A DNA stretch of 64,000 bases from an uncultured Flavobacteriaceae bacterium (GCA_964561925.1 CAZLRW010000002.1:7882-71881), one strand, 5' to 3'. Positions 18,471 through 61,859 are shown, numbered from the stretch's first letter. Numbers and translations are program-made. Notes: generated from the letters alone by a model not told the origin.

Positions 18471-20921
<2,451 letters not shown>

Positions 20922-22801: not shown

Positions 22802-25540
22802 TTACTGCCAGTGGCCGCCGGGCTCCGGGCCGGCGTAGGGCAGTTTCTTGCGTGGGATCAGCGTGTCGATCACGACCGCAAGGCCCGGCAAGGCGGTCAG
22901 CGCCATCACCATGTTCGTGATGAACATGAAGGTCAGCAGCAGGCCCATGTCGGCTTGGAACTTCAGCGGCGAGAATGCCCACGTGGACACGCCGACCGCA
23001 AAGTTGATCGCCGTGAAGACAACGCCGTTGCCCGTTTCCAGCACGGTTTCGGCATAGGCATCGGTGATGTTGACGCCGCGCGACAGGTGATACTGCAACC
23101 GGTTGTAGATGTAGTAGGCATAGTCGATGCCTATGCCGACCACGAGCACGATGACGGGCAGCGTCGACACCTTCAGACCGATGTCGAGCTCCAGCATGAA
23201 GTAGTAGCCGAAGAACGTGGCGTAGGTCAGCGGCAGACAGCAGCCGACCGCCGCGCGCCAGTCGAAGTAGGTGATGTAGGTGAGGAAGATCACAACCGCG
23301 TAGACGATCAAGATCGACGGCAGTTCGTACTCGTGGATCGTCTCGTTGACCGCCGCCGCGACACCCGAATTACCGGAGGCCAGTCGGATGCGGAACGAGT
23401 CCGGCACGCCGTCGACCAATATCATCTGAGCCTTGGCAAACTCGGGCTTGGCGAAAACGGCCGCGATGTCGATCTGCGCCTTGCCGTCGGGGCCGGGCGT
23501 CACGTCGATCGAGGTCGTGGCGCCCTCGATCTTCGCACCGACGATCGCCTTCTCGTCATTCTCAGGCGGCGCTCCGTAGCCTTGAACCGAGAACGATTGC
23601 GGTTTGTCCTTGATCGCAGCCGGCGCCGTGTAGGTGACCGTCGCGACATCGTCGCGCCGGTAGGCCCAAACGCTCGTCGGCTTCGCCGGTTCGCGCCGCG
23701 CTTTGCCGTCGGCCAGGTACTCCGGCGGCATGATCATGTCGGTGTAGTCCTTGCCGGCGGAGAGGACCGGCTCGAAGCCGCGGGCCGCGATCCACTCCTT
23801 CACGGCCGCAACGACATTCTTGATCGTCTCGGCCTTGCCGTCGATCAGGAACACCTGCAACGGCATCAGCGTGCAGTCGACGTCGATCAAGCCCGAAGAG
23901 GGGGGGATCGGGCCGACGGCTTGAACCAGCGCATATTGATTGCGCGGCAAAGCCCGCCATTTGAGGTTGCCTTCGTTCCACCCGGAGGCGATCTGTTTGG
24001 CGGTGAACGGGGCGCTTTGCACGTCGCGCACGCCGTCGACGTTGCGCATGTACCAGCTGAATTCGTTCAAGTAATTCATGCTGCCGTAGTTGATGCAGGC
24101 CTGGGGCGGCGTCTCGACGACGATCGTCATCAGATCGAGGCCGACCGAGAACTTCTCCGAGATAATCCGTGCGTCGACGTTGTAGCGCGCGTTCGGGTGG
24201 AGTTCCGGCGAGCCCGGGTGCAGGTCGCCGATGTGGCGCTCGCCGCTCTTGATGAAGGTGAAGACGAAGAGGCCGAAGAAAACGATCGAAACCGGGAAGG
24301 CGACCGCCGGTTTGCCGAAGACGGCGAGCTTTTTCATGTAACCGAGGCGCTGATCGCGGGCGGCCATTACGCGCTCGCGGTAGTTCTCCGGGAATTTCAT
24401 GTAGGTGACGAGCACCGGCAGCATGACCAGGTTCGTCACGATCTTGAGTGCCGTGCCGATCGAGGCCGTGATCGCAAGTTCCTGAATCTGCGGGATCGGT
24501 ACGATGATGAGCGCCGCGAAGCCTACGACGTCGGTGATGAGCGAGATCGAACCCGGCACCAAGAGGCCGCGGAAGCTCGACCGGCCGGCGCGCTCGGCAT
24601 TCGAGCCGTGCGCGAGTTCGGCCGTGATCATATTGAGCTGCTGAACGCCGTGACTGGTACCAATGGCGAAGACCAAAAACGGCACGAGAATGGCGAGCGG
24701 GTCGAGGCCGAAACCGAACAGCGTGAGCATACCGAACTGCCACACGACCGAGGTCGCCGAACAGAACACCGTGAGCCACGTCAGCTTCCAATCGCGGCAA
24801 TAGAAGTAGAGCGAGAGGACCGTCAGGATGAACGCGAGAGCGAAGAACGGCGGCGCGGACTCGATGCCGCCTTTGGCGATGTCGGAAATGTTCTTGGCGA
24901 AGCCGATGATGTGGACTTCGAGGCCGTCCTTCTCGAACTTCTGACGGATCTTCTGCTCGAGTTCCTCGCCGAGGGCGATGTAGTCGAGCCTCTGCTGCGT
25001 CGCCGGATCGAACTCGAGGAGTTCGGTCACGACGAGCGAGGCGGTGAAGTCGTTCGACACCAAGCGGCCGACGAGATTGCCCTTCAGAACGTCGTTCTTC
25101 AGCTGCTTGATCGCGACGCCTTCCATTTCGTCGGGCGTGATCTTGCCCGGGATCACGTCGCGCGCGGAGATGCCTTCCTCGTTGATCTCCAGAATGCGCG
25201 TGTTCGGCGTCCAAAGACTCGTGACGGTGCGGCGGTCGACGCCCGGCAGATAGAAGATGTCCTGCGTGATGTCGTTCAGGGTCTTCAGGAACTGCTTGTC
25301 CCAGATGTCGCCCTTCGTGTTGCGCAGCACGATGATGACGCGGTTCGCGCCGAACAGGCGGTCCTGGTACTCGCGAAACGTCTCGATGTACTCGTGGTCC
25401 GTCGGCAAGCCTTTGAAGAAGCCCGCGTCCATGCGCAGCTTCGTCGCCTGGTAGCCCATGACGATCGTGAGGAGGGCGAGCGCCGCAAGCAGAAGAACGC
25501 GCCCACGGAAGAAAATGGTTTCGAGAAAAGTGATGATCAC
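22802..25540 (-). CDS. RND-superfamily exporter, MMPL / sterol-sensing-domain type (paralogue A)
   Basis: 912 aa, GTG start. Two blocks of TM helices, each preceded by a large soluble loop. Motifs: FGANRVIIV, PGVDRRTVTSLWTPN, LDPLAILVPFLVFAIGTSHGVQQLN. No MFP or OMF gene nearby. Confidence 0.85.
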   Translation of the reverse strand: MIITFLETIFFRGRVLLLAALALLTIVMGYQATKLRMDAGFFKGLPTDHEYIETFREYQDRLFGANRVIIVLRNTKGDIWDKQFLKTLNDITQDIFYLPGVDRRTVTSLWTPNTRILEINEEGISARDVIPGKITPDEMEGVAIKQLKNDVLKGNLVGRLVSNDFTASLVVTELLEFDPATQQRLDYIALGEELEQKIRQKFEKDGLEVHIIGFAKNISDIAKGGIESAPPFFALAFILTVLSLYFYCRDWKLTWLTVFCSATSVVWQFGMLTLFGFGLDPLAILVPFLVFAIGTSHGVQQLNMITAELAHGSNAERAGRSSFRGLLVPGSISLITDVVGFAALIIVPIPQIQELAITASIGTALKIVTNLVMLPVLVTYMKFPENYRERVMAARDQRLGYMKKLAVFGKPAVAFPVSIVFFGLFVFTFIKSGERHIGDLHPGSPELHPNARYNVDARIISEKFSVGLDLMTIVVETPPQACINYGSMNYLNEFSWYMRNVDGVRDVQSAPFTAKQIASGWNEGNLKWRALPRNQYALVQAVGPIPPSSGLIDVDCTLMPLQVFLIDGKAETIKNVVAAVKEWIAARGFEPVLSAGKDYTDMIMPPEYLADGKARREPAKPTSVWAYRRDDVATVTYTAPAAIKDKPQSFSVQGYGAPPENDEKAIVGAKIEGATTSIDVTPGPDGKAQIDIAAVFAKPEFAKAQMILVDGVPDSFRIRLASGNSGVAAAVNETIHEYELPSILIVYAVVIFLTYITYFDWRAAVGCCLPLTYATFFGYYFMLELDIGLKVSTLPVIVLVVGIGIDYAYYIYNRLQYHLSRGVNITDAYAETVLETGNGVVFTAINFAVGVSTWAFSPLKFQADMGLLLTFMFITNMVMALTALPGLAVVIDTLIPRKKLPYAGPEPGGHWQ

Positions 25541-25857: not shown

Positions 25858-28599
25858 TTAGTGCCAGTGGCCGCCCGGCTCGGGGCCCGGATAGGGAAGC
25901 TTTTTGCGCGGCAGCAGGGTGTCCATTACGACGGCAATGCCAGGTAGGGCCGTCAGAGCCATCGCCATGTTCGTGATGAACATGAACGTCATGAGAAGAC
26001 CCATGTCGGCTTGGAACTTCAGCGGCGAGAACGTCCAGGTCGAAACGCCGACCGCGAAGTTCAGCGCCGTGAAGAAGATGCCGTTGCCCGTCTCGAGGAT
26101 CGTCTCTTGATAGGCCTCGCTGATGTTGACGCCTCGCGATAGGTGATACTGGAGGCGGTTGTAAATGTAATACGCATAGTCGACACCGACACCGACCACG
26201 AGCACGATCACCGGCAGCGTCGACACCTTCAGGCCGATGTCGAGTTCAAGCATGAAGAAGTAGCCGAAGAACGTGGAGAACAAGAGCGGCAGCATGCAAC
26301 CGACGGCGGCGCGCCAGTCGAAGTACGTGACGTAGGTCAGGAACAGCACCATCGCGTACACGATCAGCGTCGAGGGGCCCTCGTACCACTCGATCGTCTG
26401 GTTGACGGCGGCGGTCACGCCCGAGTTGCCGGACGCCATGCGGGTCGTGAAGGAGTCGGGAACACCGTCGAGCACGAAGAGTTCGGCGTCCTTGAACTCC
26501 GGCTTCGAGATGACCGGGACGAGGTCGACCTTCGCCGTGCCGTCTTCGCCCGGCGACACCTCGACGCTGCCTTCGGCGCCGGCGACGACGTCGCCCACGA
26601 GACCACGCAATTGTTCGTTGCCCTCGGGCGGCCGTTTGTAGCCCTTCACGGTGAAGACTTGCTTCTGGCCTTTGAGCTGCTGCGGCGGCGTGTAGACGAG
26701 GTTCTGGGCCTCTTCGCGCGTTACCGTCCAAGTCGACGTCGGTTTCGCAGGTTCGCGGCGCGGTTTGCCGTCGGCCAGGAACTCCGGCGGCATGATGCGG
26801 TCGCCGTTGTTGCGGCCGGCCGACAGGATCGGCGTGAAGCCGCGCGCGGCCATCCACTCTTCAACTTTCTCGACGACGCCTTCGATCGTCGTCGCCTTGC
26901 CGTCGACCAGGAACACCTGCAGCGGCAGAAGCGTACAATCGACGTCGATCAGGCCGGACGACGAGGGGATCGGGCCAACGGCCTGGACCAGCGCGTAGGT
27001 GTTGCGCGGCAGCGCGCGCCATTTGAGATTGCCTTCGTTCCAACCGGCGGCGATCTGCTTGGCGGTGAACGGCGCGCTCTGCACTTCGCGCACGCCGTCG
27101 ACGTTGCGCATGTACCAGCTGAACTCGTTCAGATAGTTCATCGACGCGTAGTTGATGCAGGCTTGCGGCGGCGTTTCGACGACGATCGTGAAGAGGTCGA
27201 GGCCGACCGAGAATTTCTCCGAAATTACGCGGGCGTCCACGTTGTAGCGCGCGTCGGGGCGCAATTCCGGCGAGCCGGGATGCAGGTCGCCGACGTGACG
27301 CTCGAGGCTCGCGAAGATCGCGCCCACGAACATGACGAGGAACGCGAAGGTCAGCGGGAATGCGACTTTCGGCGTGCCGAACACGCCCAGTTTCTTCATG
27401 AAGTTCAGGCGCGCGTCGCGGGCGCGGGTGATGCGCTCGCGGTAGCCGTCGTCGTACGTGAAGTAGGACGCGATGACGGGCAGCATGATCAGGTTCGTGA
27501 TGATCTTCAGCGCCGTGCCGATCGAGGCGGTGACCGCGAGTTCCTTGATCTGGGGGATCGGAACCACGAACAGCGCGGCAAAGCCGACGACCGCGGTCAC
27601 GAGCGAGAGCGATCCCGGGATCAAGAGGCCGCGGAAGCTCGATCGTGCGGCACCCTCGGGCGATGTGCCGTACGAGAGTTCCGAGGTCATCATGTTCAAT
27701 TGCTGGACGCCATGACTGGTGCCGATCGCGAACACCAAGAACGGCACGAGAATCGCGAGCGGGTCGAGGCCGTAGCCGAGCACGGTCAACAGGCCGAATT
27801 GCCAGACGACCGAGGTCAACGAACAGCCGACGGTGAGCCAGGTCAGCTTCCAGTTACGGCAATAGAAATAGACGGCAAGCACCGTCAGTACGAATGCCAG
27901 ACCGAAGAAGAGCGGCGCCGATTCGATGCCGCCCTTCGCGATGTCGGAGATGTTCTTCGCGAAGCCGATAATGTGGATCTCGAACGGATCCTTCTCGAAC
28001 TTCTGGCGTATCTTCGACTCCAGCTCCTCGCCCAACTTGATGTAGTTCAGTTTTTCGCCGGATGCGGGGTCGAATTCGAGCAACTCGGCGACGATCAGCG
28101 AGGCCGTGAAATCGTTCGAGACGAGGCGGCCGACGAGATTGCCCTTCAGAACGTCGTTCTTCAGCTGCTTGATCGCGGCGCCTTCGATTTCGTCGGGCGT
28201 GATCTTGCCCGGAATGACGTCGCGGGCCGATATGCCCTCTTCCGTGATCTCGAGAATGCGGGTGTTCGGCGTCCAGAGGCTGGTGACCGTGCGGCGGTCG
28301 ACGCCGGGCAAATAGAAGACGTCTTGCGTGACGTCGTTCAGCGTCTTCAGGAACTGCTTGTTCCAGATGTCGCCCTTCGTGTTGCGGACGACGATGATGA
28401 TGCGGTTCGCGCCGAACAGTTTGTCCTGATACTCGAAGAACGTGTCGATGTAGGGGTGGTGTTCCGGCAGGCCTTTGTAGAAGCCCGCATCCATCCGCAG
28501 CTTCGTCGCTTCGTAGCCGAGCACGATGGTCGTGAGCGCGATGAGCGCCAGGACGATGACGCGGCCGCGGAAGAAGATCGTCTCGAGAAAGCGGATCAT
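25858..28599 (-). CDS. RND-superfamily exporter, MMPL / sterol-sensing-domain type (paralogue B)
   Basis: 913 aa, ATG start with AGGAG upstream. Collinear with paralogue A from MIRFLETIFFRGRV to PEPGGHWH. Confidence 0.85.
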   Translation of the reverse strand: MIRFLETIFFRGRVIVLALIALTTIVLGYEATKLRMDAGFYKGLPEHHPYIDTFFEYQDKLFGANRIIIVVRNTKGDIWNKQFLKTLNDVTQDVFYLPGVDRRTVTSLWTPNTRILEITEEGISARDVIPGKITPDEIEGAAIKQLKNDVLKGNLVGRLVSNDFTASLIVAELLEFDPASGEKLNYIKLGEELESKIRQKFEKDPFEIHIIGFAKNISDIAKGGIESAPLFFGLAFVLTVLAVYFYCRNWKLTWLTVGCSLTSVVWQFGLLTVLGYGLDPLAILVPFLVFAIGTSHGVQQLNMMTSELSYGTSPEGAARSSFRGLLIPGSLSLVTAVVGFAALFVVPIPQIKELAVTASIGTALKIITNLIMLPVIASYFTYDDGYRERITRARDARLNFMKKLGVFGTPKVAFPLTFAFLVMFVGAIFASLERHVGDLHPGSPELRPDARYNVDARVISEKFSVGLDLFTIVVETPPQACINYASMNYLNEFSWYMRNVDGVREVQSAPFTAKQIAAGWNEGNLKWRALPRNTYALVQAVGPIPSSSGLIDVDCTLLPLQVFLVDGKATTIEGVVEKVEEWMAARGFTPILSAGRNNGDRIMPPEFLADGKPRREPAKPTSTWTVTREEAQNLVYTPPQQLKGQKQVFTVKGYKRPPEGNEQLRGLVGDVVAGAEGSVEVSPGEDGTAKVDLVPVISKPEFKDAELFVLDGVPDSFTTRMASGNSGVTAAVNQTIEWYEGPSTLIVYAMVLFLTYVTYFDWRAAVGCMLPLLFSTFFGYFFMLELDIGLKVSTLPVIVLVVGVGVDYAYYIYNRLQYHLSRGVNISEAYQETILETGNGIFFTALNFAVGVSTWTFSPLKFQADMGLLMTFMFITNMAMALTALPGIAVVMDTLLPRKKLPYPGPEPGGHWH

Positions 28600-32933: not shown

Positions 32934-34253
32934 TTATCCTCTTGAAATCGCAGGGTTCTCGAGGTTCCGCCGGGGCAGGATCATCCGCACGACAGCGCCG
33001 CCTTGCGGGCGGTTGCCGAACGTGACCTTGCCGCCGATACGCTCGAGCAGCGTCTTGGCGATGAAGAAGCCGAGGCCGAGGCCCGCGTGGCCGTCGGCGT
33101 GAAGATTGGCGGGCGCGCCTTCCTTGCGGTTCGAGTCGAGGCCTGCGCGCGAGGTGACATAAGGCTCGCCCAAGCGCGTCAGGATTTCGGTGTCGAACCC
33201 CGTGCCGTCGTCGCCGATCGTCATGTCGACGCTGGTGTCGTTCCAGGTGGCGTCGATGTCGACCTTCGTCGTGGCGAAGTCGACCGCGTTCTCGATCAGG
33301 TTGCCGATGCCGTGCACGACTTCCGGCGTGCGCAGGACGTTGATGGCGCCTTCGCCGTGGGCCCTGACGTTGATGTCGATGCCGAAGCCGCGGTGAGGTT
33401 CGGCGATTTCGTCGATCAGGGCGGCAAGCGGCAGACGCTGTACGACGTTGTCTTCGTCCGTATCCTGCTGCGAGAGGCGCGAGAGAATCTCCCGGCAGCG
33501 TTCGGCCTGGCTGCGCAGCAGCCGAACGTCCTCAAGCCAGGGGCTTTCTTGCGGGATGTCGCGTTCGAGTTCGCGCGCGACGACAGAGATCGTGCCCAAG
33601 GGCGTGCCGAGTTCGTGGGCCGCTGCTGCTGCCAGTGCGCCCAAATCGGACAAGCGTTGCTCGCGCGCGAGGGCCGATTGGGCGGCGGCGAGCGCGGCTT
33701 GCATGCGCCGCGCCTCGTCGGCGGTGCGCCAGGCGTAAATCAGGCTGAAGCCGATGCAGAGCGTGAGGGCCACCCAGTTCCCGGCGATGTAGAGCGCGGG
33801 CAGGCTCAACGGCGCGTTCGGGTCCCAGGGCAGCGGCCAGTGCAGGACGGAGATCGTCGAGATGCAGCCGAGCGCCAGGAAGGCGAGCGCCAGCGTCGAG
33901 CCGAGGCTCAAGTTGGCGGCCGAGATCACGACGGGGGCGAGAAAGAGGATGGAAAACGGATTCTCGATGCCGCCGGTCAAAGCCAGCATCGCGGTCAGCT
34001 GCATGATGTCGAAGGCCAGGTGAGCGGTTGCCTCGCGCTCGCTCAAGACATGGACGTTGGGGTAGAGGAAGAACATCAGCGCGTTGAAGGCGACGGCCAC
34101 GCCGATCACCATGAGGCACTGCACGATCGGCAGCTGATACTTCAGGCCGAGGAAGACGATGAAGATCGCGACCAACTGCCCGATGACGCCGAGCGAGCGG
34201 ACGAAGATCAGCGTGCGCAGACGGATGCTCGAGCTGGCGCTCGGCGCCCGCAC
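32934..34253 (-). CDS. regB: Redox sensor histidine kinase RegB/ActS/PrrB family
   Basis: 439 aa. Multi-TM N-terminus, H-box AAAAHELGTPL, HATPase C-terminus. Confidence 0.9.
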   Translation of the reverse strand: MRAPSASSSIRLRTLIFVRSLGVIGQLVAIFIVFLGLKYQLPIVQCLMVIGVAVAFNALMFFLYPNVHVLSEREATAHLAFDIMQLTAMLALTGGIENPFSILFLAPVVISAANLSLGSTLALAFLALGCISTISVLHWPLPWDPNAPLSLPALYIAGNWVALTLCIGFSLIYAWRTADEARRMQAALAAAQSALAREQRLSDLGALAAAAAHELGTPLGTISVVARELERDIPQESPWLEDVRLLRSQAERCREILSRLSQQDTDEDNVVQRLPLAALIDEIAEPHRGFGIDINVRAHGEGAINVLRTPEVVHGIGNLIENAVDFATTKVDIDATWNDTSVDMTIGDDGTGFDTEILTRLGEPYVTSRAGLDSNRKEGAPANLHADGHAGLGLGFFIAKTLLERIGGKVTFGNRPQGGAVVRMILPRRNLENPAISRG

Positions 34254-34285: not shown

Positions 34286-34867
34286 CTATTTCGGTTTCGC
34301 CTTCTTCAAAAGGGCGACGAGATCGGCCCGCTGATTGCGTTCGGCGATGTCGAGCGCCGTCGCGCCGGAGGCGTCCGTTTCCTCGACGTTCGCGCCGCGA
34401 TCGAGGAGGAGCTTCACCATTTCTCTGTGTCCGGCGCGCGTCGCCTTGATCAGTGCCGTTTCGCGCAAGGCGCCGGGCAGGTCAATATCGGCCTTGTTGT
34501 CGAGAAGGTAGGCCGCGATCGCGATGTCGCCATTCGCGCCGGCCAGCGTCAGCGCGGTCGTGTCGTCTTTGCTGCGGTCGTCCGGCCGGGCGCCGTTCTC
34601 GATCAGAATTTTCACGACGTCGAGGTTGCGCGACGCCGTCGCCAAAACGATCAGCGGCGTGCCGTCGGCGGCGCGCTTGTGAACGGAGGCGCCGGCGACC
34701 AAGGCGGCGTTCGTGTCTTCGACCGAACCTTTTTCGACGGCGCGAACGATCGGCGCGTCGCCGAAGAGTTCGTCCAGCGGCGAGGCGGCATTCGCGGCAC
34801 CTACGCCCGCCACCGACACAGCCGCCGCTGCTACCCACGCCAGCCAGTTCTTGCGCATCGCCTGCAT
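34286..34867 (-). CDS. Secreted ankyrin-repeat protein
   Basis: Signal peptide MQAMRKNWLAWVAAAAVSVAGVGAANA, then ankyrin repeats (GTPLIVLATASRNLDVVKILIENGARPD, TALTLAGANGDIAIAAYLLDNKADID...). Start at the 27th codon of ORF 34286..34945. Confidence 0.8.
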   Translation of the reverse strand: MQAMRKNWLAWVAAAAVSVAGVGAANAASPLDELFGDAPIVRAVEKGSVEDTNAALVAGASVHKRAADGTPLIVLATASRNLDVVKILIENGARPDDRSKDDTTALTLAGANGDIAIAAYLLDNKADIDLPGALRETALIKATRAGHREMVKLLLDRGANVEETDASGATALDIAERNQRADLVALLKKAKPK

Positions 34868-35020
34868 GTCCCCGTTGCGCGCCGTTAACTCCCGACCCGC
34901 GGCGCCGATAATAGCGGGTGGCGATGGCTTGGGAAGTGGCGGCAAATTCCTCAGGATTTATCCGCCATTAAGGGCCGATCTTTAGATTTTGCAGCCGGTT
35001 GAACAGGACATCCGGCTCGC

Positions 35021-39499: not shown

Positions 39500-39870
39500 G
39501 CATTCAAACGCCCTTGGGCCGCGTGCGCGGGCTTGGTTCCGCGAAGTCGGGCGTCGCACATTTTTGGCACCAGCGGTTGTCTGCGGCGGCATTGGTGCCG
39601 CTCACAATCTGGTTCGTGTGGTCGGTCGCGCGTTACGCCGGCGCGCCTTATGCCGAGGTGGTCGCGTTTTTTCACAATCCGTTCAATGCGGCGGCGATGC
39701 TGCTGTTCGTGTTGGGAGGGCTCTATCACATGGTGCTCGGGCTGCAGGTCGTGGTCGAAGACTACATTCGCCGCGAGACGACCAGGCTCGGCCTTCTGAT
39801 TCTCATCAACTTCGCTGCGTTCGCGGCCGGCGTGACTGCGGTCATTGCCGTGCTGCGGCTTGCGGTTTAG
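39496..39870 (+). CDS. sdhD: Succinate dehydrogenase hydrophobic membrane anchor
   Basis: [30 protein letters not shown].... ATGA overlap with sdhC. Confidence 0.9.
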
Positions 39871-39880
39871 GAGCCGCGTC

Positions 39881-41668
39881 ATGGCCGCTTATCCGATCAC
39901 CGATCATACGTTCGACGTCGTCGTCGTGGGCGCGGGCGGCGCGGGCTTGCGCGCGACGCTCGAGGCGGCACGGCATGGGTTGAAGGTCGCCAACATCACG
40001 AAGGTGTTCCCGACGCGCAGCCACACGGTCGCCGCGCAAGGCGGCATCTCGGCCGCGCTTGGCAACATGGAGCCCGACGACTGGCGCTGGCATATGTACG
40101 ACACGGTGAAGGGGTCGGACTGGCTCGGCGACCAGGACGCGATCGAGTATCTGTGCCGGCACGCGCCGGAAGCGGTCTATGAGCTCGAGCATTTCGGCGT
40201 GCCGTTTAGCCGTACGGAAGAAGGCAAGATCTATCAGCGCGCCTTCGGCGGCATGACGAAGGACTACGGCAAGTCGTCGATCCAACGTACGGCGGCCGCC
40301 GCCGACCGCACGGGGCACGCGATCCTGCATACGCTCTATGGGCAGAGCCTGCGCTATGATGCCGAGTTCTTCATCGAGTACTTCGCACTCGACCTCATCA
40401 TGGAAGACGGCCGCTGCCGCGGGTTGATGGCGTGGTCGCTCGACGACGGGTCCATCCACCGCTTCCGCGCGAACAAGGTGATCTTGGCGACGGGCGGTTA
40501 CGGGCGGGCCTATTACACCTGCACCGGCGCGCACACACAGACGGGCGACGGCAACGCGATGGTGCTGCGCGCGGGGCTGCCGCTGCAAGACATGGAGTTC
40601 GTCCAGTTCCATCCGACCGGCGTCTACGGCGCGGGCGTGCTGATCACCGAGGGTGTGCGGGGTGAGGGCGGGTATCTGACGAACGCGAACGGCGAGCGCT
40701 TCATGGAACGCTACGCGCCGAGCGTGAAGGACCTTGCGTCGCGCGACGTCGTCAGCCGCGCCATGACGATCGAGATTCGCGAGGGGCGCGGGGTCGGTCC
40801 CCACAAGGACCACATTCACCTGCACCTCAGCCATCTCGATCCGAAGATCATTCACGAACGGCTGCCGGGCATTTCCGAATCTGCGCGCATCTTTGCCGGC
40901 GTCGACGTGACGAAGCAGCCGATCCCGGTGCTTCCGACCGTGCACTACAACATGGGCGGCATCCCCACGAACTATCACGGCGAGGTCGTGACGCTGAAGG
41001 ACGGCAATCCGGACGCGGTCGTGCCGGGCTTGATGGCGATCGGCGAGGCGGCGTGCGTCTCGGTGCACGGCGCCAATCGGTTGGGTTCGAACTCGTTGAT
41101 CGATCTTGTCGTGTTCGGAAAGGCCGCGGGCCTGAAGTGCGCCGCCGACGTGAAGCCCGGCGAACGGCAGGCGGAGTTCGCCAAGGGTGCGGGCGATCAT
41201 GCGCTGGCGCGGCTCGATCGGTTCCGCAACGCGAAGGGCGGCGCGCCGGCGTCGCAGCTCAGGTTGCGCATGCAGCGCGCGATGCAAAGCCACTGTCCGG
41301 TGTTCCGCGTCGGGTCGGAACTCAAGAAGGGCGTCGATGCGGTGGCGCAGATTTACAAAGAGTTGCCGAACATCGACGTGAAAGACCGATCGATGATCTG
41401 GAACAGCGATCTCGTCGAGACGCTGGAGTTCGACAATCTGATCGCCCAAGCGGCGGTGACGGTCGAGGGCGCCTATGCGCGCGAGGAAAGCCGCGGCGGT
41501 CATGCGCGCGAAGACTTCCCGAACCGCGACGATCAGAAGTGGATGAAGCACACGCTGTCGTGGTTCGATGCGAAGACCGGCGCCGTGAAGCTCGACTACC
41601 GGCCGGTGCACACTTTCACGCTGTCGAACGACGTCGAGTACATCGCGCCGAAGGCGCGCGTGTATTGA
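39881..41668 (+). CDS. sdhA: Succinate dehydrogenase flavoprotein subunit
   Basis: [24 protein letters not shown] and [11 protein letters not shown]. Start at the 13th codon of ORF 39845..41668. Confidence 0.96.
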
Positions 41669-42552: not shown

Positions 42553-43914
42553 ATGGCCATTCTTCCCGATTCGGTGGCGCGTTCGCCCGGGCTCAAATTT
42601 CTGCTTGTCGGACTGATCACGCTTGCGATGGCGGTGCCGTTGTTCTTCGTGTTCATCGCGCTGATGGACCGGCAGGAATATGCGCGGACCGCTATCGCCG
42701 ATATCGCGCGCGGATGGGGCGGTTCGCAAACGGTCGGCGGACCCGTGCTTGCGGTGCCTTATGTCGTCGCCGAAAGCCATCGTGCCGCCGACGGGACGGT
42801 AACGACCACCGACGTGCGGCGTGTGGCGATCTTCCTGCCGAAGTCGCTGAGGGCACAGGCCACGACGAAGACCGAAACGCGCTCGCGCGGGATCTTCGAT
42901 GCGAACGTCTACACGGCCGAGGTGGTTTTGAGCGGCGCGTTCGCCACGCCGGACTTTGCGGACGCGGGTTTCGCCGCGAAGTCGATCGCGTGGGATCAGG
43001 CGGTGTTGCTCGTCACCGTGTCGGATTTGCAGGGCTTGGCCGAGAACGTGTCGGTCGCATGGGGACCGGCGCAGACGCCGGTCGCGTTCCGCCCCGGGCT
43101 GATCGCGGAGCTCGGCGGCTATCCCGGGATCAATGCGCGCGTGCGGATGACGGGCGAGCCGGGCGACACGGCGTTTTCGATCGCGCTGAAACTGCGCGGC
43201 ACGAGCGATCTGCAGTTCACGGCGGCCGGCGAAATCACCGAGGCCGCGGTCGCGGGCGACTGGCCGCATCCGAGCTTCCAAGGGAACTTCCTGCCCACCG
43301 CACGCGAGATCACGACCGCGGGCTTCAGCGCATCGTGGAAAGTGCCGCATCTTGCGCGGAACCTGCCGCAGGCTTCGCCCGTGCCGGACAATCTGTTCGC
43401 GGGGTTGAGCGGGGCCAGCTTCGGCGTGTCGTTCTATCAGCCGGTCAATTTCTATCAGCTGGTCGAGCGGGCGTTGAAATACGCGGTCATGTTCGTCGGC
43501 TTCGCGTTTCTTGCGTTCTTCTTGATCGAGACGCTGTCGGGGTCGCGCATTCACGGCGTCCAGTATCTTCTGATCGGCGGCGCGCAGGTCGTGTTCTACC
43601 TCCTGCTGCTTTCGCTTGCGGAGCAGATCGGATTCGACTTCGCGTACGGGTGCGCGGCGGCGGCGACGGTGGTGCTGGTCGCGCTCTATGCGTGGTCGGC
43701 CCTCAAGAGTTCGTCTTTGGCCATGACGGTGTTCGGCGTGCTTGCGGTTCTCTATGCGCTGTTGTTCCTGCTGTTGAAACAGGAAGACTATGCGCTTGTG
43801 ATCGGCGCGTGCGCCGCCTTCGCCGCGATCGCGGTCACGATGTTTGCGACGCGCAACGTCGATTGGTACCGGACGGGCGAGAAGGCGCGCGTCGGGTTCG
43901 GCACGCGCAATTGA
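42553..43914 (+). CDS. creD: CreD-family inner membrane protein
   Basis: 453 aa. N-terminal TM segment, a large soluble region, and a C-terminal TM cluster. WGGSQTVGGPVLAVPY is typical of CreD. Confidence 0.8.
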   Translation: MAILPDSVARSPGLKFLLVGLITLAMAVPLFFVFIALMDRQEYARTAIADIARGWGGSQTVGGPVLAVPYVVAESHRAADGTVTTTDVRRVAIFLPKSLRAQATTKTETRSRGIFDANVYTAEVVLSGAFATPDFADAGFAAKSIAWDQAVLLVTVSDLQGLAENVSVAWGPAQTPVAFRPGLIAELGGYPGINARVRMTGEPGDTAFSIALKLRGTSDLQFTAAGEITEAAVAGDWPHPSFQGNFLPTAREITTAGFSASWKVPHLARNLPQASPVPDNLFAGLSGASFGVSFYQPVNFYQLVERALKYAVMFVGFAFLAFFLIETLSGSRIHGVQYLLIGGAQVVFYLLLLSLAEQIGFDFAYGCAAAATVVLVALYAWSALKSSSLAMTVFGVLAVLYALLFLLLKQEDYALVIGACAAFAAIAVTMFATRNVDWYRTGEKARVGFGTRN

Positions 43915-46751: not shown

Positions 46752-47531
46752 ATGGTTCAGCTTACTCTGCCGAAGAACAGCAAGGTCAAGACCGGCAAGA
46801 CCTGGCCTGCCCAGCAGGCTGCCGCGAACACCAAGACGTTCAAGGTCTATCGCTGGGACCCGGAGGACGGGCAAAACCCCCGGCTCGACACCTATACCGT
46901 CGATATCGACAATTGCGGTCCGATGATCTTGGACGCGCTCATCAAGATCAAGAACGAGATCGATCCGACGCTGACGTTCCGCCGCTCTTGCCGGGAGGGC
47001 GTATGCGGGTCGTGCGCCATGAACATCGACGGTTCGAACACGCTGGCCTGCACGAAGGCGATCGCGGATATCAAAGGACCGGTCGCGGTCTATCCTCTGC
47101 CGGCGATGGACGTGGTCAAAGATCTCGTGCCGGACATGACGCATCTCTATGCGCAGTACGCCTCGATCGAGCCGTGGCTGCATACGAAGACGCCGACGCC
47201 GGAGAAGGAATGGCGCCAATCGCCCGAGGACCGGCAGAAGCTGGACGGGCTCTACGAGTGCATCCTGTGCGCATGTTGCTCCACGTCGTGTCCCAGCTAT
47301 TGGTGGAACCAGGACCGGTATCTGGGGCCTGCGGTGTTGCTGCAGGCTTATCGCTGGCTTGCCGACAGCCGCGACGAGGCGAAGGGCGAGCGGCTCGACA
47401 ATCTCGAAGATCCGTTCCGGCTCTATCGCTGCCACACGATCATGAACTGCGCGAGCGCGTGCCCGAAGGGATTGAACCCCGCGCAGGCGATCGGCGAAAT
47501 CAAGCAGATGATGGTCAAGCGATCGATCTGA
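46752..47531 (+). CDS. sdhB: Succinate dehydrogenase iron-sulfur subunit
   Basis: 259 aa with Fe-S motifs [23 protein letters not shown] and [12 protein letters not shown]. Confidence 0.96.
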
Positions 47532-55524: not shown

Positions 55525-56607
55525 ATGATGCGCGTATCTGCGTTTCTTGCCGCGCTGAGCTTTGCGCTCGCGGGCGCCGCGGCGGCGGCTCCTATTCCGC
55601 CGGGCAGCTATCAGTCGACGTGCAAGGACATCTATGCGGACGGCACGACACTATCGGCGACGTGCCGGGGGTCGTTCGGCCAGTGGAACTACAGCACGCT
55701 GCGCGACTATCGCGATTGCGAGGGCGACATCGCGAACGAGCGCGGACGCCTCGTCTGCCGCGACGATCCCTACGACGACGGCGACGACCAATGGCTGCCG
55801 CGCGGCAGCTACCGCGAGACGTGCCGGCGCGCGCGCGTCGTGGACCGGACGCTCACCGCCGAATGCGTCGACCGCAACGGCAATTGGCGCTACAGCGAAC
55901 TCGTCGACTTCAGCCGCTGCCGCGGCGACATCGCGAACGCGAACGGCCGGCTCGTCTGCCGCAGCGACGACGACGATGACGATTGGGCGCCGAACGGAAG
56001 CTATCGCGACACGTGCCGGCGCGTGAACGTTCAAGAGGGCACGTTGACGGCCGAGTGTCGCGATCGCGACGGACGCTGGCGCTACACGGAGCTGCCCAAT
56101 TACCGTTCGTGCCGCGGCGACATCGCGAACGTGAACGGCATGTTGCGCTGCCGGTTCGGCGACGACGACAACGGCGAGTTGCCGGACGGGAGCTGGCGGT
56201 CGAGCTGCCGCAATGCGCGCGTCGTCGGGTCGATCCTCTATGCGCAATGCCGCAACAGGTACGGCGAATGGCGCAACACGTCGCTCGATCTGCGGAACTG
56301 CGAGCGGGACGTGCGCAATGTCGACGGCAGGCTCGTCTGCGGCGGCGCCGGCGGCTTCGGCCGGATCACGCTCTACAGGCACACGAACTTCGGCGGGAAG
56401 TCGCGTACGTTCACGTCGGACGTGCCCGACCTCAACCCGTATGCGTTCGGCAACCTGGCTTCGAGCGTGGTCGTGCAGGGCGGCGTCTGGCAACTGTGCG
56501 ACAGGCCGAATTACCGCGGCTATTGCATCGTCATCGACCGCACGAACGCGAATCTTTGGACGCTCGGCTTCAACGACCGGGCGGAATCGGTCAGGCGCGT
56601 CCGCTAG
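55525..56607 (+). CDS. Secreted protein with four cyanovirin-N-homology (CVNH) half repeats plus a C-terminal beta/gamma-crystallin domain
   Basis: Signal peptide. Four ~55-aa repeats of GS[YW]..[ST]C......L.A.C....G.W.....L.....C.GDIAN.NG.L.C separated by acidic linkers. Repeat 2 resembles the cyanovirin-N second half (ETCR...LAAEC...IANIDGTL). The tail [11 protein letters not shown]...SSVVV / [11 protein letters not shown]...ESVRRV gives two Greek-key motifs. Confidence 0.8.
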
Positions 56608-56686: not shown

Positions 56687-57523
56687 ATGGAAACCGTTCA
56701 ACTCGACCGGCGCGCGTTTGCCGTGACGGGCCTTGCCGCCGGGTTTGCGCTGTCGGTGCAGCCGGTCGCGGCCTCGACGATTGCGACGGACGCTGCGGGG
56801 CTCGATGCGGGCGAGGTCAAGATCCCGGTCCCCGACGGCGAAATTCCCGCCTATCGTGCGATGCCCGCGAAAGGCACGAAACTTCCCACGATCGTCGTGA
56901 TCCACGAGATCTTCGGCGTGCACGAGTGGATCAAGGACATCTGCCGGCGCTTCGCCAAGCAGGGCTATCTGGCGGTCGCGCCCTACGTCTATTCGCGTCA
57001 GGGCGATGCAATGGCGTATACCGACATCCGAAAGCTCGTCGAAGAACTGGTCGCGAAGGTCGACGACACGGTCGTGCTCAGCGATCTCGATGCGACCGCC
57101 AAGTGGGCGGCGGCGAACGGCGGCGACGGTGCGAAGCTCGGCGTCACGGGGTTCTGCTGGGGCGGACGGCAGACGTGGCTCTACACGGCGCACAACGCAA
57201 ACGTGAAGGCGGGCGTCGCGTGGTACGGGCGGCTGACGCGGCCCGACGGGAACACGCAGCCCAAGCATCCGGTCGAAGTGGCGTCGGCGCTCAAAGGTCG
57301 GGCGCTCGGGCTCTACGGCGGGCTGGACAAGGGCATCCCTCTGACGCAGGTCGATGCGATGCGTGCGGCGCTCAAGGTCGCCGGCGACGCGAAGTCGGAG
57401 ATCGTCGTCTATCCGCAGGCCGATCACGGTTTCTTGGCCGATTACCGGCCGACCTACAACGAGGCCGCCGCTAGGGAAGCCTGGGCGCGGTGTCTCAAGT
57501 GGTTCAAGGATAACGGCGTGTAA
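56687..57523 (+). CDS. Dienelactone hydrolase family protein (Tat-type signal)
   Basis: [23 protein letters not shown]..., [16 protein letters not shown] and [10 protein letters not shown]-terminal 278 codons of ORF 56213..57523. Confidence 0.85.
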
Positions 57524-57590: not shown

Positions 57591-60353
57591 GTGAGTGCCG
57601 ACCCTCAAGCCGAGGCCAAGTTCCAACAGGAAGTGGCCGCCAATCTGACGCGCAACTATGTCAGCCAGCTTGCCCACGGCATGTTGGCGATGACGGGGTT
57701 TCGGCTCGTCAACGCGCCCACGTTCGTGCCGGCTTATCTGTTCGTCCTGTCGGGCTCGCCGACAGTCGTGGGCCTAGCGCTCGCGACTCAGCATCTGGGC
57801 GCGTTCTTTTCGAGCGTGTTCGGGGCGACGGCGATCGAACACCGCCGGCGCATCGTGGATCTCGGTCTTCGATACGGCTGGGCGATGCGTCTTGCGGTGT
57901 TGGGGCTTGCGCTCTCCGGCTTCCTGTTGCCCGACGCGTATGTGCTCTACGCGTTCGCGCTGTTCTTAGGGTTGCTCGGCGTGTTTTCGGGCATGCAGAA
58001 CGTGCTTTGGAACGTGCTGCTGACGAAGACGATTCCGGCGGAGCGGCGCGGCATGCTGATCGGCATGCGCAACTTCCTGGGCGGGATGACGGCGTCTGGC
58101 GTCGCGTATGTCGGCGGGACCTATCTCGTCGAAGGCAACGCGTTCGGCAACGGCTATGCGTCGACGTTTCTTCTCGCCTTCGTGCTGACCGCGCTGGGGT
58201 TGACGCTGCTCTATCTCGTTCGCGAGCCCGAGTCGCCCACGGTGCGGGCGCCGGTCAGCGTGCGCGAGCGCCTCGGCGATATTCCCGCATTGATGCGCGA
58301 CCGCGCGTTCGCGGTCTATTTCTGGGCGCAGACGCTTGCGACGCTCGGCACGCTTGCGCTGCCGTTCTACATTCTCTTCGTCGCCAAGACGCAAGGGATG
58401 AGCGGGGAGACGTTGGGGCTGTTGTCGCTCGGCCTTTTGGTTTCGCAGACGGTGGCCAATCTCGTTTGGGGCTGGATGGCGGATCGCGTCGGCTTCAAGG
58501 CGGTGTTCGTGCCGGCCCTTCTGCTGTGGGCGGGCGCAACGATCGCGCTGTTGTTCTCGTCGGATATCTCGGGCGCGCTGTTCTGCTTCGTCGGCATCGG
58601 CGCCGGCTATGCAGGGTTTCTGATCGCGGCACAGAACATGGTGCTCGAGTTCGGCACGCGCGACGACTTGCCGATGCGCATAGCGATGGTTAACTCAGCG
58701 CAATCTCTGGTTCAGGTCATCGGCGCGGTTGCAGGCGGACAAATGGCCGCGACGCTGGGATATGAAGCGGTGTTCGCCGCGGCTGCGCTTGCCAAGCTCG
58801 CGGCGGCTGTCATGTTGTGGTTGTATGTGCGCGAACCGCGTTCGCGGCGGCCTTTGGGGGAGGTCGTGGTGGATGCGGGTGAGGGATTCGAAATGTCAGT
58901 CAGTGGCGATGGGGCCGCTGTTCCCCCCAACGCGGCCGGGCAACAGCAGTCGCGGGCAAAGACGTCGAGCGAAGCGAAGCGGGCGAAGTCGCCCTTGGGC
59001 GTGCGCGTCGACGACATCAAATGGACGCTGCTTCCGGCTTGGGCCGCCTTGTTCATTCTGGCGATCTGGACGGGCGCGTGGATGTTCGCGTTCGTGCTCG
59101 GGCTCGGCGTCGCGTTGATCGCCGTCGCGCGACTGGGCTTCGTGCGCAGTCTTCCCGAACCGGTCTTGGGGGCCGCCGCACCACAGCCTTCGTCGCCCCT
59201 TCGGGCGTCGATCACGGCGGAACCGGCCGTGCAACCGGTTGCCGCTGCGGCAAAGCCCGAGTTTGTTCCGTCCGACATCGTCCGCCGGCTCCCGGATCCC
59301 GCGATCCTGACCGACTTTTCCGGTCGCATCATCGCCGGCAACGATGCGATGGAGCAGGTGTTCGGCGTCGCCGAGCCGCGCAAACACCTGGCCAGCGTGA
59401 TCCGCGCGCCGCAAGTGCTGGGCGCGCTCGATCTGGCGCTTGCCGGGCGCGGCGCGCAGCGCGTCGAGTTTCCGGTCGTCGGCACGCCCGAACAGAATTT
59501 CGAGGCCTATATCTCGCCCGTCGAGGGATCGGACCGGACGCCGCGCGCGGCGCTGATCGTGCTGCGCGATCTGACGAAGGCGCAGCGCGTCGAGCAGATG
59601 CGCGCCGATTTCGTCGCGAACGCAAGCCACGAATTGCGCACGCCGCTTGCCTCGCTCACCGGCTTCATCGACACGCTGCGCGGTCATGCGAAGGACGACC
59701 CGGACGCGCAGGAACGCTTCCTCGGCATCATGGCCGAGCAGGCGATGCGCATGCGGCGCCTGATCGACGATCTGTTGTCGCTGACGCGGATCGAACTCAA
59801 CGAGCATGTGCGGCCGGCGGGAAGCGTCAATCTCAGCGACGTTGCGGAAGAAGTGCTGAACGCGTTTTCGCCCGTCGCGGCCGGCGCGAACGTTCAACTC
59901 GAAATCGTCGAACCGTCGTCGCTGCCGAACGTGGCCGGCGACCGGGACGAATTGTTCCAGGTGGTGCAGAACCTCGTCGACAACGCGATCAAGTACGGCA
60001 AGCCGCAGACGGTCGTCACGCTCGAACTCGGCACGCGGCGCGCGGCCCCCGGCGAGCCCGGGCCTTCGCCCGCCGTCTACGTCGCCGTGCGCGACCGCGG
60101 CGAGGGGATCGCGCGCGAGCACATTCCGCGGCTCACGGAGCGGTTCTATCGCGTCGACGTCCGGCGCAGCCGCGCGATCGGCGGCACGGGGCTTGGGCTT
60201 GCGATCGTCAAGCACATCGTGAACCGCCATCGCGGACGCATGTCGGTCGAGAGCAAGGTGGGCGAAGGATCCACGTTCACCGTGTATTTGCCCTTGGCCA
60301 CCGAAGTGGGGGCGGGCGAAGCGCCGCAACCGGGACTGCTTGCGGCGTCATAA
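57591..60353 (+). CDS. phoR: Fusion protein: 12-TM MFS-type permease (aa 1-415) + phosphate-regulon sensor kinase PhoR (aa ~478-920)
   Basis: Single 920-codon frame with a GTG start. The N-terminal half is 6+6 hydrophobic helices. The C-terminal half has a TM hairpin, a PAS-like segment, H-box ANASHELRTPL, and ATPase boxes QNLVDNAIKY and GGTGLGLAIVKHIV. It is followed by phoU-phoB. Confidence 0.8.
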   Translation: MSADPQAEAKFQQEVAANLTRNYVSQLAHGMLAMTGFRLVNAPTFVPAYLFVLSGSPTVVGLALATQHLGAFFSSVFGATAIEHRRRIVDLGLRYGWAMRLAVLGLALSGFLLPDAYVLYAFALFLGLLGVFSGMQNVLWNVLLTKTIPAERRGMLIGMRNFLGGMTASGVAYVGGTYLVEGNAFGNGYASTFLLAFVLTALGLTLLYLVREPESPTVRAPVSVRERLGDIPALMRDRAFAVYFWAQTLATLGTLALPFYILFVAKTQGMSGETLGLLSLGLLVSQTVANLVWGWMADRVGFKAVFVPALLLWAGATIALLFSSDISGALFCFVGIGAGYAGFLIAAQNMVLEFGTRDDLPMRIAMVNSAQSLVQVIGAVAGGQMAATLGYEAVFAAAALAKLAAAVMLWLYVREPRSRRPLGEVVVDAGEGFEMSVSGDGAAVPPNAAGQQQSRAKTSSEAKRAKSPLGVRVDDIKWTLLPAWAALFILAIWTGAWMFAFVLGLGVALIAVARLGFVRSLPEPVLGAAAPQPSSPLRASITAEPAVQPVAAAAKPEFVPSDIVRRLPDPAILTDFSGRIIAGNDAMEQVFGVAEPRKHLASVIRAPQVLGALDLALAGRGAQRVEFPVVGTPEQNFEAYISPVEGSDRTPRAALIVLRDLTKAQRVEQMRADFVANASHELRTPLASLTGFIDTLRGHAKDDPDAQERFLGIMAEQAMRMRRLIDDLLSLTRIELNEHVRPAGSVNLSDVAEEVLNAFSPVAAGANVQLEIVEPSSLPNVAGDRDELFQVVQNLVDNAIKYGKPQTVVTLELGTRRAAPGEPGPSPAVYVAVRDRGEGIAREHIPRLTERFYRVDVRRSRAIGGTGLGLAIVKHIVNRHRGRMSVESKVGEGSTFTVYLPLATEVGAGEAPQPGLLAAS

Positions 60354-60409: not shown

Positions 60410-61129
60410 ATGTCCGAACATATCGTCAAGTCCTTTCACGACCAGCTCGAAGCGCTGAGCACGGGGATCGTGCAAATGGGCGGGCTTTGCGAAACGCAGC
60501 TCGGACACGCAATCGACGCGATCGTGCGGCGCGACGCGGCGCTCGCCGAGCAGGTCGTCGCGCTCGACGCCAGGGTCGATCAGTTCGAGGCGAACCTCGA
60601 GCAACAGGCCGTGCAACTGTTGGCGTTGCGGCAGCCTCTCGCGCTCGATCTGCGGGAGACGATCGCGGCCCTGAAGATTTCGGCCGACCTCGAACGGATC
60701 GGCGATCTTGCGAAGAACGTCGCCAAGCGGGCGATGGTGCTTTCGACTGATACGCCGGACGCGCATCTGACGCAGGGGCTCGCGCGGATGGGGCGCTTGG
60801 CGCTGGCGCAGGTCAAGAACGTGCTCGACTCCTATGCGAAACGCGACGCGAACGCGGCGATGACCGTCTGGCGGCGCGACGGGGAGATCGACGAGATCTA
60901 CAATTCGCTGTTCCGGGAACTCCTGACCTACATGATGGAGGATCCGCGCAAGATCGGACCTTCGACCCATCTTCTGTTCGTCGCGAAGAACTTCGAACGG
61001 GTCGGCGATCACGCGACGAACATCGCAGAGACCGTGCACTACGTGGTGACGGGCTCGCGGATCGGGGACCAGCGGCCGAAGAGCGACATCACCTCGACAA
61101 CTTCGATGACCCCGCATGACAAACCCTGA
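60410..61129 (+). CDS. phoU: Phosphate signalling complex protein PhoU
   Basis: 239 aa with two PhoU repeats (DLERIGDLAKNVA and NFERVGDHATNIAE). Confidence 0.93.
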   Translation: MSEHIVKSFHDQLEALSTGIVQMGGLCETQLGHAIDAIVRRDAALAEQVVALDARVDQFEANLEQQAVQLLALRQPLALDLRETIAALKISADLERIGDLAKNVAKRAMVLSTDTPDAHLTQGLARMGRLALAQVKNVLDSYAKRDANAAMTVWRRDGEIDEIYNSLFRELLTYMMEDPRKIGPSTHLLFVAKNFERVGDHATNIAETVHYVVTGSRIGDQRPKSDITSTTSMTPHDKP

Positions 61130-61859
61130 CGCCCTCAATCCCGCCGTCAAGCAAAGCGCGCCGCGCCGCCCTCTGGTCCTGGTGGCCGAGGACGAAAGCG
61201 CTCTGATGACGCTCCTGCGCTACAATCTCGAGAAAGAAGGCTATCGCTCGGCGGAAGCGGCCGACGGCGAAGCGGCGCTGATGCTGGCCAGCGAAGAGGC
61301 GCCTGACCTCGTGCTGCTCGATTGGATGATGCCGAAGGTCTCAGGCATCGAAGTGTGCCGGCGGTTGAGAAGCCGGGCCGAGACGCGCAACGTTCCGATC
61401 ATCATGCTGACCGCGCGGGGCGAAGAAGCCGACCGGGTGCGCGGTCTCGATACCGGCGCCGACGACTACATCACGAAGCCGTTCTCGATGACGGAACTTC
61501 TGGCGCGCATTCGGGCCGTGATGCGGCGCGTGCGGCCGGCGCTGGCGGAAGACGTTGTGCAATTCGGCGACGTCTCGATCGACCGGGCGGCGCACCGCGT
61601 CCGGCGCGGGGACAAGGACATCCATCTCGGGCCGACCGAGTACCGGTTGCTCGACCACTTCCTGCAGCATCCGGGGCGCGTGTTCAGCCGCGAGCAGCTG
61701 CTGGACGCCGTGTGGGGCTCGGGCGTGTATGTCGATGCGCGTACGGTCGACGTTCACATCGGACGTCTGCGCAAGGCGCTGAACGAGCCCGGACAGCTCG
61801 ATCCGATCCGCACGGTGCGCTCGGCCGGGTACGCGCTGGACGAATCGTTCAAGAACTGA
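61116..61859 (+). CDS. phoB: Phosphate regulon response regulator PhoB (OmpR family)
   Basis: 247 aa. Receiver (LVAEDE...DLVLLDWMMP) plus a winged-helix domain (LGPTEYRLLDHFLQHPGRVFSREQLLDAVWG). Overlaps phoU by 14 nt. Confidence 0.92.
   Translation: MTNPDALNPAVKQSAPRRPLVLVAEDESALMTLLRYNLEKEGYRSAEAADGEAALMLASEEAPDLVLLDWMMPKVSGIEVCRRLRSRAETRNVPIIMLTARGEEADRVRGLDTGADDYITKPFSMTELLARIRAVMRRVRPALAEDVVQFGDVSIDRAAHRVRRGDKDIHLGPTEYRLLDHFLQHPGRVFSREQLLDAVWGSGVYVDARTVDVHIGRLRKALNEPGQLDPIRTVRSAGYALDESFKN

Follow-up and report, generated by a model that had tools for sequence, protein, structure and literature searches.

Introduction

The histidine kinase PhoR lacks a sensor domain and is believed to be signalled to by the PstSCAB-PhoU complex, through a mechanism that has yet to be explained (10.1101/2023.03.23.533958). 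In the canonical PhoR-PstSCAB-PhoU-PhoB system, as known from E. coli, Salmonella and most alphaproteobacteria, the kinase consists of a two-helix transmembrane (TM) hairpin with a minimal periplasmic loop followed by PAS, DHp and CA domains, and its input depends on a transporter, namely an ATP-binding cassette importer that is a non-covalent partner and whose pstSCAB genes, in the nearest unfused relatives of the gene described here, lie between phoR and phoU. Herein we describe a gene from a 64,000-nucleotide stretch of DNA, hereafter the window, that is labelled as an uncultured Flavobacteriaceae bacterium (GCA_964561925.1, CAZLRW010000002.1:7882-71881). In this gene a PhoR with the same hairpin-PAS-DHp-CA architecture, and with phoU and phoB downstream as in the canonical system, is preceded within one reading frame by a complete permease of the major facilitator superfamily (MFS), which canonical PhoR does not have.

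Transporter-kinase fusions have been called rare (PMC13022988; PMC11109136). The SLC5/STAC sensor kinases, which include CbrA, CrbS/MxtR and RpuS and are known as transceptor kinases, have been described as a rare class (PMC13022988, PMC9100948, PMC5715377, PMC7096432) and, like the gene described here, place a complete secondary transporter N-terminal to PAS, DHp and CA domains in a single polypeptide. They combine a LeuT-fold SLC5 transporter with the four-helix STAC domain, and for STAC-linked CbrA the signal has been proposed to run rigidly along the chain (PMC13022988), whereas the present fusion has an MFS transporter, a disordered linker and a TM hairpin of its own. The kinase family and regulon also differ (PhoR/PhoB), and the origin of the fusion can be traced to the loss or gain of one stop codon between neighbouring genes. 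No match to SSF/SLC5 was found in the fusion with Pfam or by structure, its transporter domain being MFS, and since it contains neither SLC5 nor STAC its domain content places it outside this group.

Two-protein arrangements offer a second comparison. Co-sensing pairs of a transporter and a kinase include DctA/DcuS and BceAB/BceS (PMC11109136). In these pairs, as in UhpC/UhpB and LysP/CadC, a protein of a transporter family perceives the signal, and the unfused lineage reported below (L086) has the same two-protein layout; unlike the fusion, all four pairs are non-covalent and none controls PhoB. UhpC is one of the organophosphate:Pi antiporters, a family with which the MFS half of the fusion shares no more than a trivial match (UhpT). 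In yeast, the MFS phosphate carrier Pho84 doubles as a sensor of phosphate status, as cited in PMC11109136; it signals to protein kinase A and is not fused to a kinase, and we regard it as a conceptual parallel only.

Results

Architecture of the fusion protein

The initial annotation had read the gene as one uninterrupted 920-codon frame encoding a complete twelve-helix MFS permease in a 6+6 layout, a linker, a two-helix hairpin with almost no periplasmic loop and a PhoR-like kinase with PAS segment, H-box and ATPase boxes, followed directly by phoU and phoB, and every part of this description was upheld (Table 1). The profile search that it had proposed for the two halves returned MFS_1 for the N-terminal half (E 1e-31, 110.6 bits vs. 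a gathering cutoff of 33.4) and PAS_4 (aa 565-665), HisKA (671-735, E 3e-18) and HATPase_c (783-903, E 3e-28) for the C-terminal half, while no Pfam domain was found in the linker at 418-466. Direct reading of the sequence located the phospho-accepting H680 (59628-59630) and all of the H, N, G1 and G2 boxes.

The predicted structure follows the same division. A full-length AlphaFold model built on 59 homologues has twelve helices arranged 6+6 with a predicted local distance difference test score (pLDDT) of about 90 and a central loop at 208-237, then disorder at 418-466, and then a hairpin of two helices (468-494 and 497-517, pLDDT about 80) that are joined by a two-residue periplasmic turn. 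When the MFS half (the N-terminal 420 residues) was modelled separately it again gave 12 helices (pLDDT 89, predicted TM-score 0.87). With the full-length model Foldseek returned kinase-core matches only, among them WalK, HK853 and other kinase cores, and the MFS structural matches described below came from the MFS-half model. The topological argument of the initial annotation, that the MFS C-terminus ends in the cytoplasm where the N-terminus of PhoR begins, holds. Three features had escaped it: a second disordered linker, a conserved Shine-Dalgarno (SD)-like motif followed by the ATG of M435, and a locus that is without pstSCAB.

The best NCBIfam model for the kinase was PhoR (TIGR02966, aa 563-899), at 308-310 bits and thus slightly below the equivalog cutoff of 334. 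The unfused orthologue L086 reaches 324 bits on the same model, also below 334, and the whole clade is slightly divergent. By architecture, best-model match, synteny and phylogeny the kinase half is assigned as a PhoR orthologue, though it falls slightly below the curated cutoff.

Table 1 Coordinates of the fusion gene, its parts and the adjoining genes, counted from the first letter of the window.
Feature	Coordinates	Strand	Details
MFS::PhoR fusion gene	57591..60353	+	920 codons; GTG start without recognisable SD; TAA stop
MFS permease domain, complete, 12-TM	57645..58826	+	aa 19-412; Pfam MFS_1, AlphaFold, Foldseek
Disordered linker 1, cytoplasmic, low-complexity, variable in length	58842..58988	+	aa 418-466; pLDDT about 26-32
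SD-like motif GAGGG (58881-58885) and in-frame ATG of M435 (58893-58895)	58881..58895	+	candidate start of a 486-aa PhoR-only isoform
PhoR TM hairpin (TM13-14)	58992..59141	+	aa 468-517; AlphaFold, hydropathy, position homologous to the unfused PhoR hairpin
Disordered linker 2, hairpin to PAS	59142..59261	+	aa 518-557; pLDDT about 31-34
PAS domain, cytoplasmic	59268..59570	+	aa 560-660; Pfam PAS_4, AlphaFold PAS fold, pLDDT about 85
Kinase core, DHp/HisKA (aa 662-736) and CA/HATPase_c (aa 783-903)	59574..60299	+	Pfam, Foldseek, boxes
phoU	60410..61129	+	TIGR02135, 236 bits vs. cutoff 130; Pfam PhoU; 56-nt gap after the fusion
phoB, response regulator	61116..61859	+	TIGR02154, 352 bits vs. cutoff 296; Pfam Response_reg and Trans_reg_C; overlaps phoU by 14 nt
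Dienelactone-hydrolase (DLH)-family (YghX-like) gene with Tat-like signal peptide (RRAF) and strong SD	56687..57523	+	Pfam DLH E 7e-56; NCBIfam YghX-like weak

Conservation of the fusion in relatives

A search of 5.8 billion proteins retrieved ~55 clusters (at 90% identity) that combine MFS_1, HisKA and HATPase_c in 897-955 aa and that are 56-85% identical to the query (66-85% within the main clade), carrying the database labels "MFS transporter", "hypothetical protein" or "signal transduction histidine kinase". At the DNA level the fusion is a single open frame of 915-929 codons in 14 of the 15 complete genomic loci, which derive from many projects and assemblers, and it is thus kept in relatives, as the initial annotation had asked. 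Among species-representative genomes, full-length matches were confined to metagenome-assembled genomes (MAGs) labelled Micropepsaceae or unclassified Alphaproteobacteria, plus a few mislabelled Flavobacteriaceae, while in the next-best genomes (Azospirillaceae, Stellaceae, Acetobacteraceae and others) the match was limited to residues ~563-920. The carriers are uncultured soil and freshwater alphaproteobacteria, known only as MAGs. Four loci (L003, L004, L007 and L014), from third-party MAGs, are titled "uncultured Flavobacteriaceae bacterium" and yet have the alphaproteobacterial locus, GcrA included, at 74-77% identity; evidently these labels are wrong or the bins are contaminated.

The fifteenth locus, L018, has one extra G, which falls after the SD-like motif and before the M435 codon (TTT G GAG ATG; 11290-11365) and splits the frame into a 453-aa MFS and a PhoR in the +1 frame. 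This indel lies on a 544-kb contig exactly at the natural gene boundary. We do not take it for a natural split, since it is a single extra G placed within a conserved motif, beyond which the +1 frame remains conserved. An assembly indel is probable, albeit not proven. A further apparent fusion, of an aldo-keto reductase to an MFS 83% identical to ours (P0057), was likewise rejected: its sequence is garbled to either side of the MFS, and we read it as a gene call in which frameshifts have joined on the aldo-keto reductase gene that lies upstream, as in L093. Such MAGs do contain indel errors, and both cases could be taken to suggest that a missed stop or frameshift has merged two separate genes in the window as well. 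Against this stand the same uninterrupted frame of 910-955 aa in the ~55 independent clusters and in 14 of 15 loci, and linker 1 indels that are all multiples of three and so preserve the frame. The comparative evidence makes a sequencing or assembly artefact vanishingly improbable, and we treat it as excluded.

Selection on the two halves and on the junction

Selection was estimated as omega, the median of pairwise Nei-Gojobori estimates between the query and 14 loci. The MFS half (0.155) is under purifying selection, with a constraint like that of the PAS domain (0.18), and decay of this half, for which the initial annotation had suggested looking, was not seen. The kinase core was the most constrained (0.08), and the highest values were those of the TM hairpin (0.24), linker 1 (0.27) and linker 2 (0.40), the last being the fastest-evolving segment (dN 0.81).

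The junction itself is informative because stops in codons 418-434, from the end of TM12 to the internal Met, would be harmless if the fusion were neutral. No stop was seen there in 16 taxa, as against ~11 nonsense events expected under neutrality from a tree length of 6.4 substitutions per site at 4-fold sites (P about 1.5e-5), which argues that the open junction is selected. The covalent link between MFS and PhoR thus appears to be maintained by selection.

A split lineage and the origin of the fusion

Three independent samples (L086, L087, L088) place the closest standalone MFS, P0269 (about 55% identical), at this same syntenic locus, where an MFS of 454 aa and a PhoR of 479 aa are adjacent and in the same frame, separated by a TAA and three codons. 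The gene order there is YkuD - CVNH/crystallin - DLH - MFS - PhoR - PhoU - PhoB - GcrA(-) - ArgD - OTCase - Hsp33. The split junction reads GAG ATG TAA GGA GCC CTC GTG, with an AAGGAG Shine-Dalgarno that overlaps the stop. A single substitution turns the split state into the fused one or back.

Neighbour-joining (NJ) trees built for the MFS half and for the PhoR core, each with 200 bootstrap replicates, are congruent. All phoR-linked MFS genes are monophyletic (200/200), as is the main fused clade (200/200), and the split form groups with the deep-branching fused proteins P0054 and P0055 (200/200); a grouping of all fused forms without the split one was recovered in 0 replicates. Relative to the PhoRs of pst-pho operons, the fused clade branches as one group. 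The history was either one fusion followed by one fission, or two fusions, and under either the MFS and PhoR genes stayed together and co-evolved. An unfused, adjacent and co-evolving gene pair is "Rosetta-stone" evidence that the MFS and PhoR work together. Since one lineage has the MFS and PhoR as separate proteins, the covalent link, though favoured, is not indispensable.

A conserved candidate internal start

M435 is the sole invariant column between aa 418 and 470, being present in all 50 of the main-clade proteins compared. In 15 of 15 loci an AGGG stands 7 nt upstream of its ATG, despite differing residues at this place (EGFEM, QGLGM, QGLDM, QGLTM); of the deep-branching proteins, P0054 keeps GEATM, and P0055 is without the motif, with GGGM shortly ahead of its TM13. 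The fusion frame contains 23 in-frame ATGs, of which no more than 2 have an SD-like motif. The GTG start of the fusion has no SD, and in several loci the DLH gene ends 18-24 nt upstream of it. In unfused PhoRs 20-45 aa precede the TM hairpin, and M435 stands 46 aa before TM13. Because the SD-like motif and ATG are conserved, we consider that a PhoR-only isoform of 486 aa is probably made alongside the full-length protein.

Family and conserved residues of the MFS half

Foldseek with the MFS half gave TM-scores of 0.7-0.77 to VMAT1/2, VAChT, OxlT, SfMCT, NorA and G6PT. The top structural neighbours are of SLC18/DHA1 type, with G6PT at rank 47 among generic MFS matches. In a sequence search against the PDB the best match was NorA (E 0.02), without a clue to substrate. 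Against NCBIfam there were generic matches only, far under the cutoffs, and the organophosphate/phosphate models scored 19.9 bits vs. a cutoff of 497 (UhpT) and 20.3 vs. 408 (PgtP). Neither sequence nor structure showed a detectable specific affinity to PHS, the family of Pho84. On these matches the MFS half is best described as a DHA1/SLC18-like member of a small, uncharacterised subfamily.

Motif A and residues common to the standalone members speak for a functional carrier. Loop 8-9 holds an intact motif A, of consensus GxxxD[RK]xG[RK][RK] (GWMADRVGFK, aa 294-303; G294, D298 and G301 invariant), which is also present as a variant in loop 2-3 (GATAIEHRRR, aa 78-87; G78, E83 and R85 invariant). 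Polar residues that are invariant also in the standalone relatives are R38, E83, R85, R100, Q136, K146, R153, R160, D298 and R363.

An exhaustive HMMER search with the MFS half retrieved 102 clusters at 50% identity with E <= 1e-30. The subfamily consists almost wholly of standalone permeases of 420-450 aa, and all PhoR fusions fall under one representative. None of the other members examined (standalone P0122, P0124 and P0271, and the MFS-GNAT fusion P0062) adjoins phoR, and their neighbours include no phosphate genes and share no theme, so that the substrate cannot be inferred from neighbours. In other bacteria the same subfamily is fused C-terminally to a GNAT acetyltransferase domain (585-592 aa; P0060-P0062; L082:8001-9779), and judging from these architectures the permease subfamily has acquired cytoplasmic partners more than once.

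Locus context

The order DLH - fusion - phoU - phoB - gcrA(-) - argD is constant even at 56% identity. The calls of phoU and phoB both lie above NCBIfam equivalog cutoffs (Table 1). Two loci depart from this order, L003 (12751-13321) and L007 (3556-4118), in which gcrA directly follows the fusion and phoU-phoB are gone, with the kinase half intact; there the cognate regulator must be encoded elsewhere or lost. Of 17 loci with an examined upstream flank, 15 have the DLH gene ahead of the MFS/PhoR gene, mostly at a gap of 18-87 nt; L002, L010, L013 and L093 have a further gene between the two, which is an aldo-keto reductase wherever it was identified. The DLH gene is probably co-transcribed with the fusion, and it could hint at the substrate of the MFS.

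The nearest unfused PhoRs, to which the kinase half is 45-54% identical, lie in phoR-pstS-pstC-pstA-pstB-phoU-phoB operons. No pst gene was found within +/-10 kb of any fusion or in the 64-kb window, in searches that included tblastn with E. coli PstS/C/A/B against the window and the fetched flanks. Judging from gene order, the pst genes that normally lie between phoR and phoU have left this operon. A scan for the E. coli-type Pho box (CTGTCATN4CTGTCAT, <=3 mismatches) gave one distant match, which is under chance expectation, and this consensus is uninformative for an alphaproteobacterium. A promoter scan of 56.4-62.6 kb gave no sigma-70-like sites, and the terminator-like matches were weak and inside coding sequence.

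Further along the window, a secreted-looking protein with three cyanovirin-N homology (CVNH) repeats and a C-terminal beta/gamma-crystallin domain is encoded at 55525-56607 (+), and its counterpart occupies the same position in the split locus L086 (5935-6900). A dnaA-dnaN-recF-gyrB cluster at 14454-20921 (+) indicates that the window adjoins the chromosomal replication origin, the pho locus being about 40 kb from dnaA. Two tandem paralogues of 912 and 913 aa, of MMPL/RND type (Patched/sterol-sensing-domain-like), lie at 22802-25540 (-) and 25858-28599 (-). A second, small histidine kinase (HisKA and HATPase_c, 439 aa; 32934-34253, -) stands beside a gene for an ankyrin-repeat protein (34286-34945, -), with no response regulator. 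The genes sdhA (39845-41668) and sdhB (46752-47531) are separated by unrelated genes, among them a homologue of creD, which encodes the inner-membrane protein CreD, located at 42553-43914 (+) between sdhA and an M1 aminopeptidase gene, with no creBC nearby.

Discussion

We consider it probable, with reservations set out below, that this gene is a selectively maintained MFS-PhoR fusion in which the permease serves as a dedicated membrane partner and co-sensor of PhoR. The partnership of the two proteins is well supported; that the MFS passes a signal to the kinase, in which direction and for which ligand, and that a second isoform is made, is what we infer from it. In outline, a Micropepsaceae-like alphaproteobacterial lineage would have had an MFS gene and phoR head to tail at its pho locus, sharing one reading frame, with one stop codon as the sole difference between the separate and the fused state. 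The substrate-dependent conformation of the MFS would bias PhoR between kinase and phosphatase activity towards PhoB, and this input would act together with PhoU, replacing or adding to the usual input from PstSCAB.

The way in which the two halves might be coupled is constrained by the model. About 50 disordered residues, a retained PhoR hairpin and 40 more disordered residues rule out a rigid relay along the chain, so that coupling is expected to be lateral, either between MFS helices and TM13-14 or between cytoplasmic loops of the MFS and PAS/PhoU, in a manner like that of DctA/DcuS or BceAB/BceS. The tether would then mainly enforce proximity and a 1:1 stoichiometry. Free PhoR from the internal start may dimerise with the full-length form, and mixed dimers could tune sensitivity. 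The hard-wired transporter-sensor proposed in the initial annotation therefore survives in part: the fusion, its topology, its conservation, the selected junction and the co-evolving split pair speak for it, whereas the chain cannot act as a rigid relay, and a specifically phosphate-sensing role is unsupported, the MFS having no specific kinship with phosphate or organophosphate carriers.

Several observations weigh against a co-sensing fusion and have kept our confidence limited. Two long disordered linkers would let the domains act independently. A free PhoR is compatible with function, as both the viable split lineage and the conserved internal SD-like motif with its ATG show. Neither homology nor the surroundings of its other members connect the MFS subfamily with phosphate. 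PhoU is retained, and Pst-PhoU may still provide the main signal if pstSCAB is encoded elsewhere in the genome. Finally, the estimate for the junction is rough, as it takes an NJ tree length from 4-fold sites, and part of the 17-codon target overlaps the SD-like motif.

These points bear most directly on the main rival, a neutral read-through fusion in which an MFS gene for housekeeping or efflux, unrelated to phoR, stood upstream of it in the same frame by chance and lost its stop codon. M435, with its SD-like motif, would then be the start of the working kinase, and the MFS an ordinary transporter with a harmless tail, no information passing in either direction. Such a history would account for an invariant SD-like motif and ATG within an otherwise drifting, disordered linker, for a fusion start that is a GTG without SD, and for an MFS whose nearest relatives are DHA1/efflux-type carriers with no phosphate signature; the existence of a split lineage and of one MAG (L018) with a 1-nt frameshift exactly at the junction would also fit. 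It does not sit well with the lack of stops in codons 418-434, with the persistence of the fused state across the main clade, or with the congruent trees and an MFS-phoR adjacency that is kept even in the split lineage, in a subfamily whose other examined members are unlinked to phoR. Moreover, every translated MFS would carry a second kinase module, which is unlikely to be cost-free. Taken together, we judge neutral read-through to be improbable. An equally improbable alternative retains the partnership and denies transport, the MFS domain being either a pure ligand receptor, for which UhpC is a generally known precedent of an MFS protein acting as a sensor, or a module that does no more than anchor PhoR in the membrane or localise it. 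A binding site used only for sensing could equally be made up of the many invariant polar residues, yet these are common to the standalone members, which presumably are transporters. The conformational-switch motif A is complete in loop 8-9 and has a conserved variant in loop 2-3, the MFS half is selected just as tightly as PAS, and a PhoR that retains its own TM hairpin has no need of an extra anchor.

A bolder form of the co-sensor reading, which we hold to be doubtful though a little less so than these two alternatives, is that the MFS has taken the place of PstSCAB and is now the transporter by which phosphorus status is relayed to PhoR and PhoU. The protein would then be a covalent phosphate or organophosphate transceptor, a bacterial counterpart of yeast Pho84, with the PhoR-only isoform tuning the ratio of sensing to free kinase; in its strongest form, if true, fusion-bearing genomes would be without pstSCAB altogether.

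Full-text literature searches brought up no published account of PhoR or another histidine kinase fused to an MFS protein, in agreement with the initial annotation, which had known of none. The current labels of "MFS transporter" and "hypothetical protein" mean that PhoR would be missed in the annotations of these MAGs. The locus provides a clean, datable example of the origin and reversal of a gene fusion, by way of one stop codon between neighbours in the same frame. With it the bacterial transporter-kinase fusions, a rare class represented so far by SLC5/STAC proteins such as CbrA, come to include the major facilitator superfamily. How PhoR perceives phosphate is a long-standing question, and the locus bears directly on how transporters control PhoR (10.1101/2023.03.23.533958): with PhoR joined to a simpler, single-polypeptide transporter, and with fused and unfused sister lineages, it may offer a compact and genetically separable model for signalling from a transporter to PhoR.

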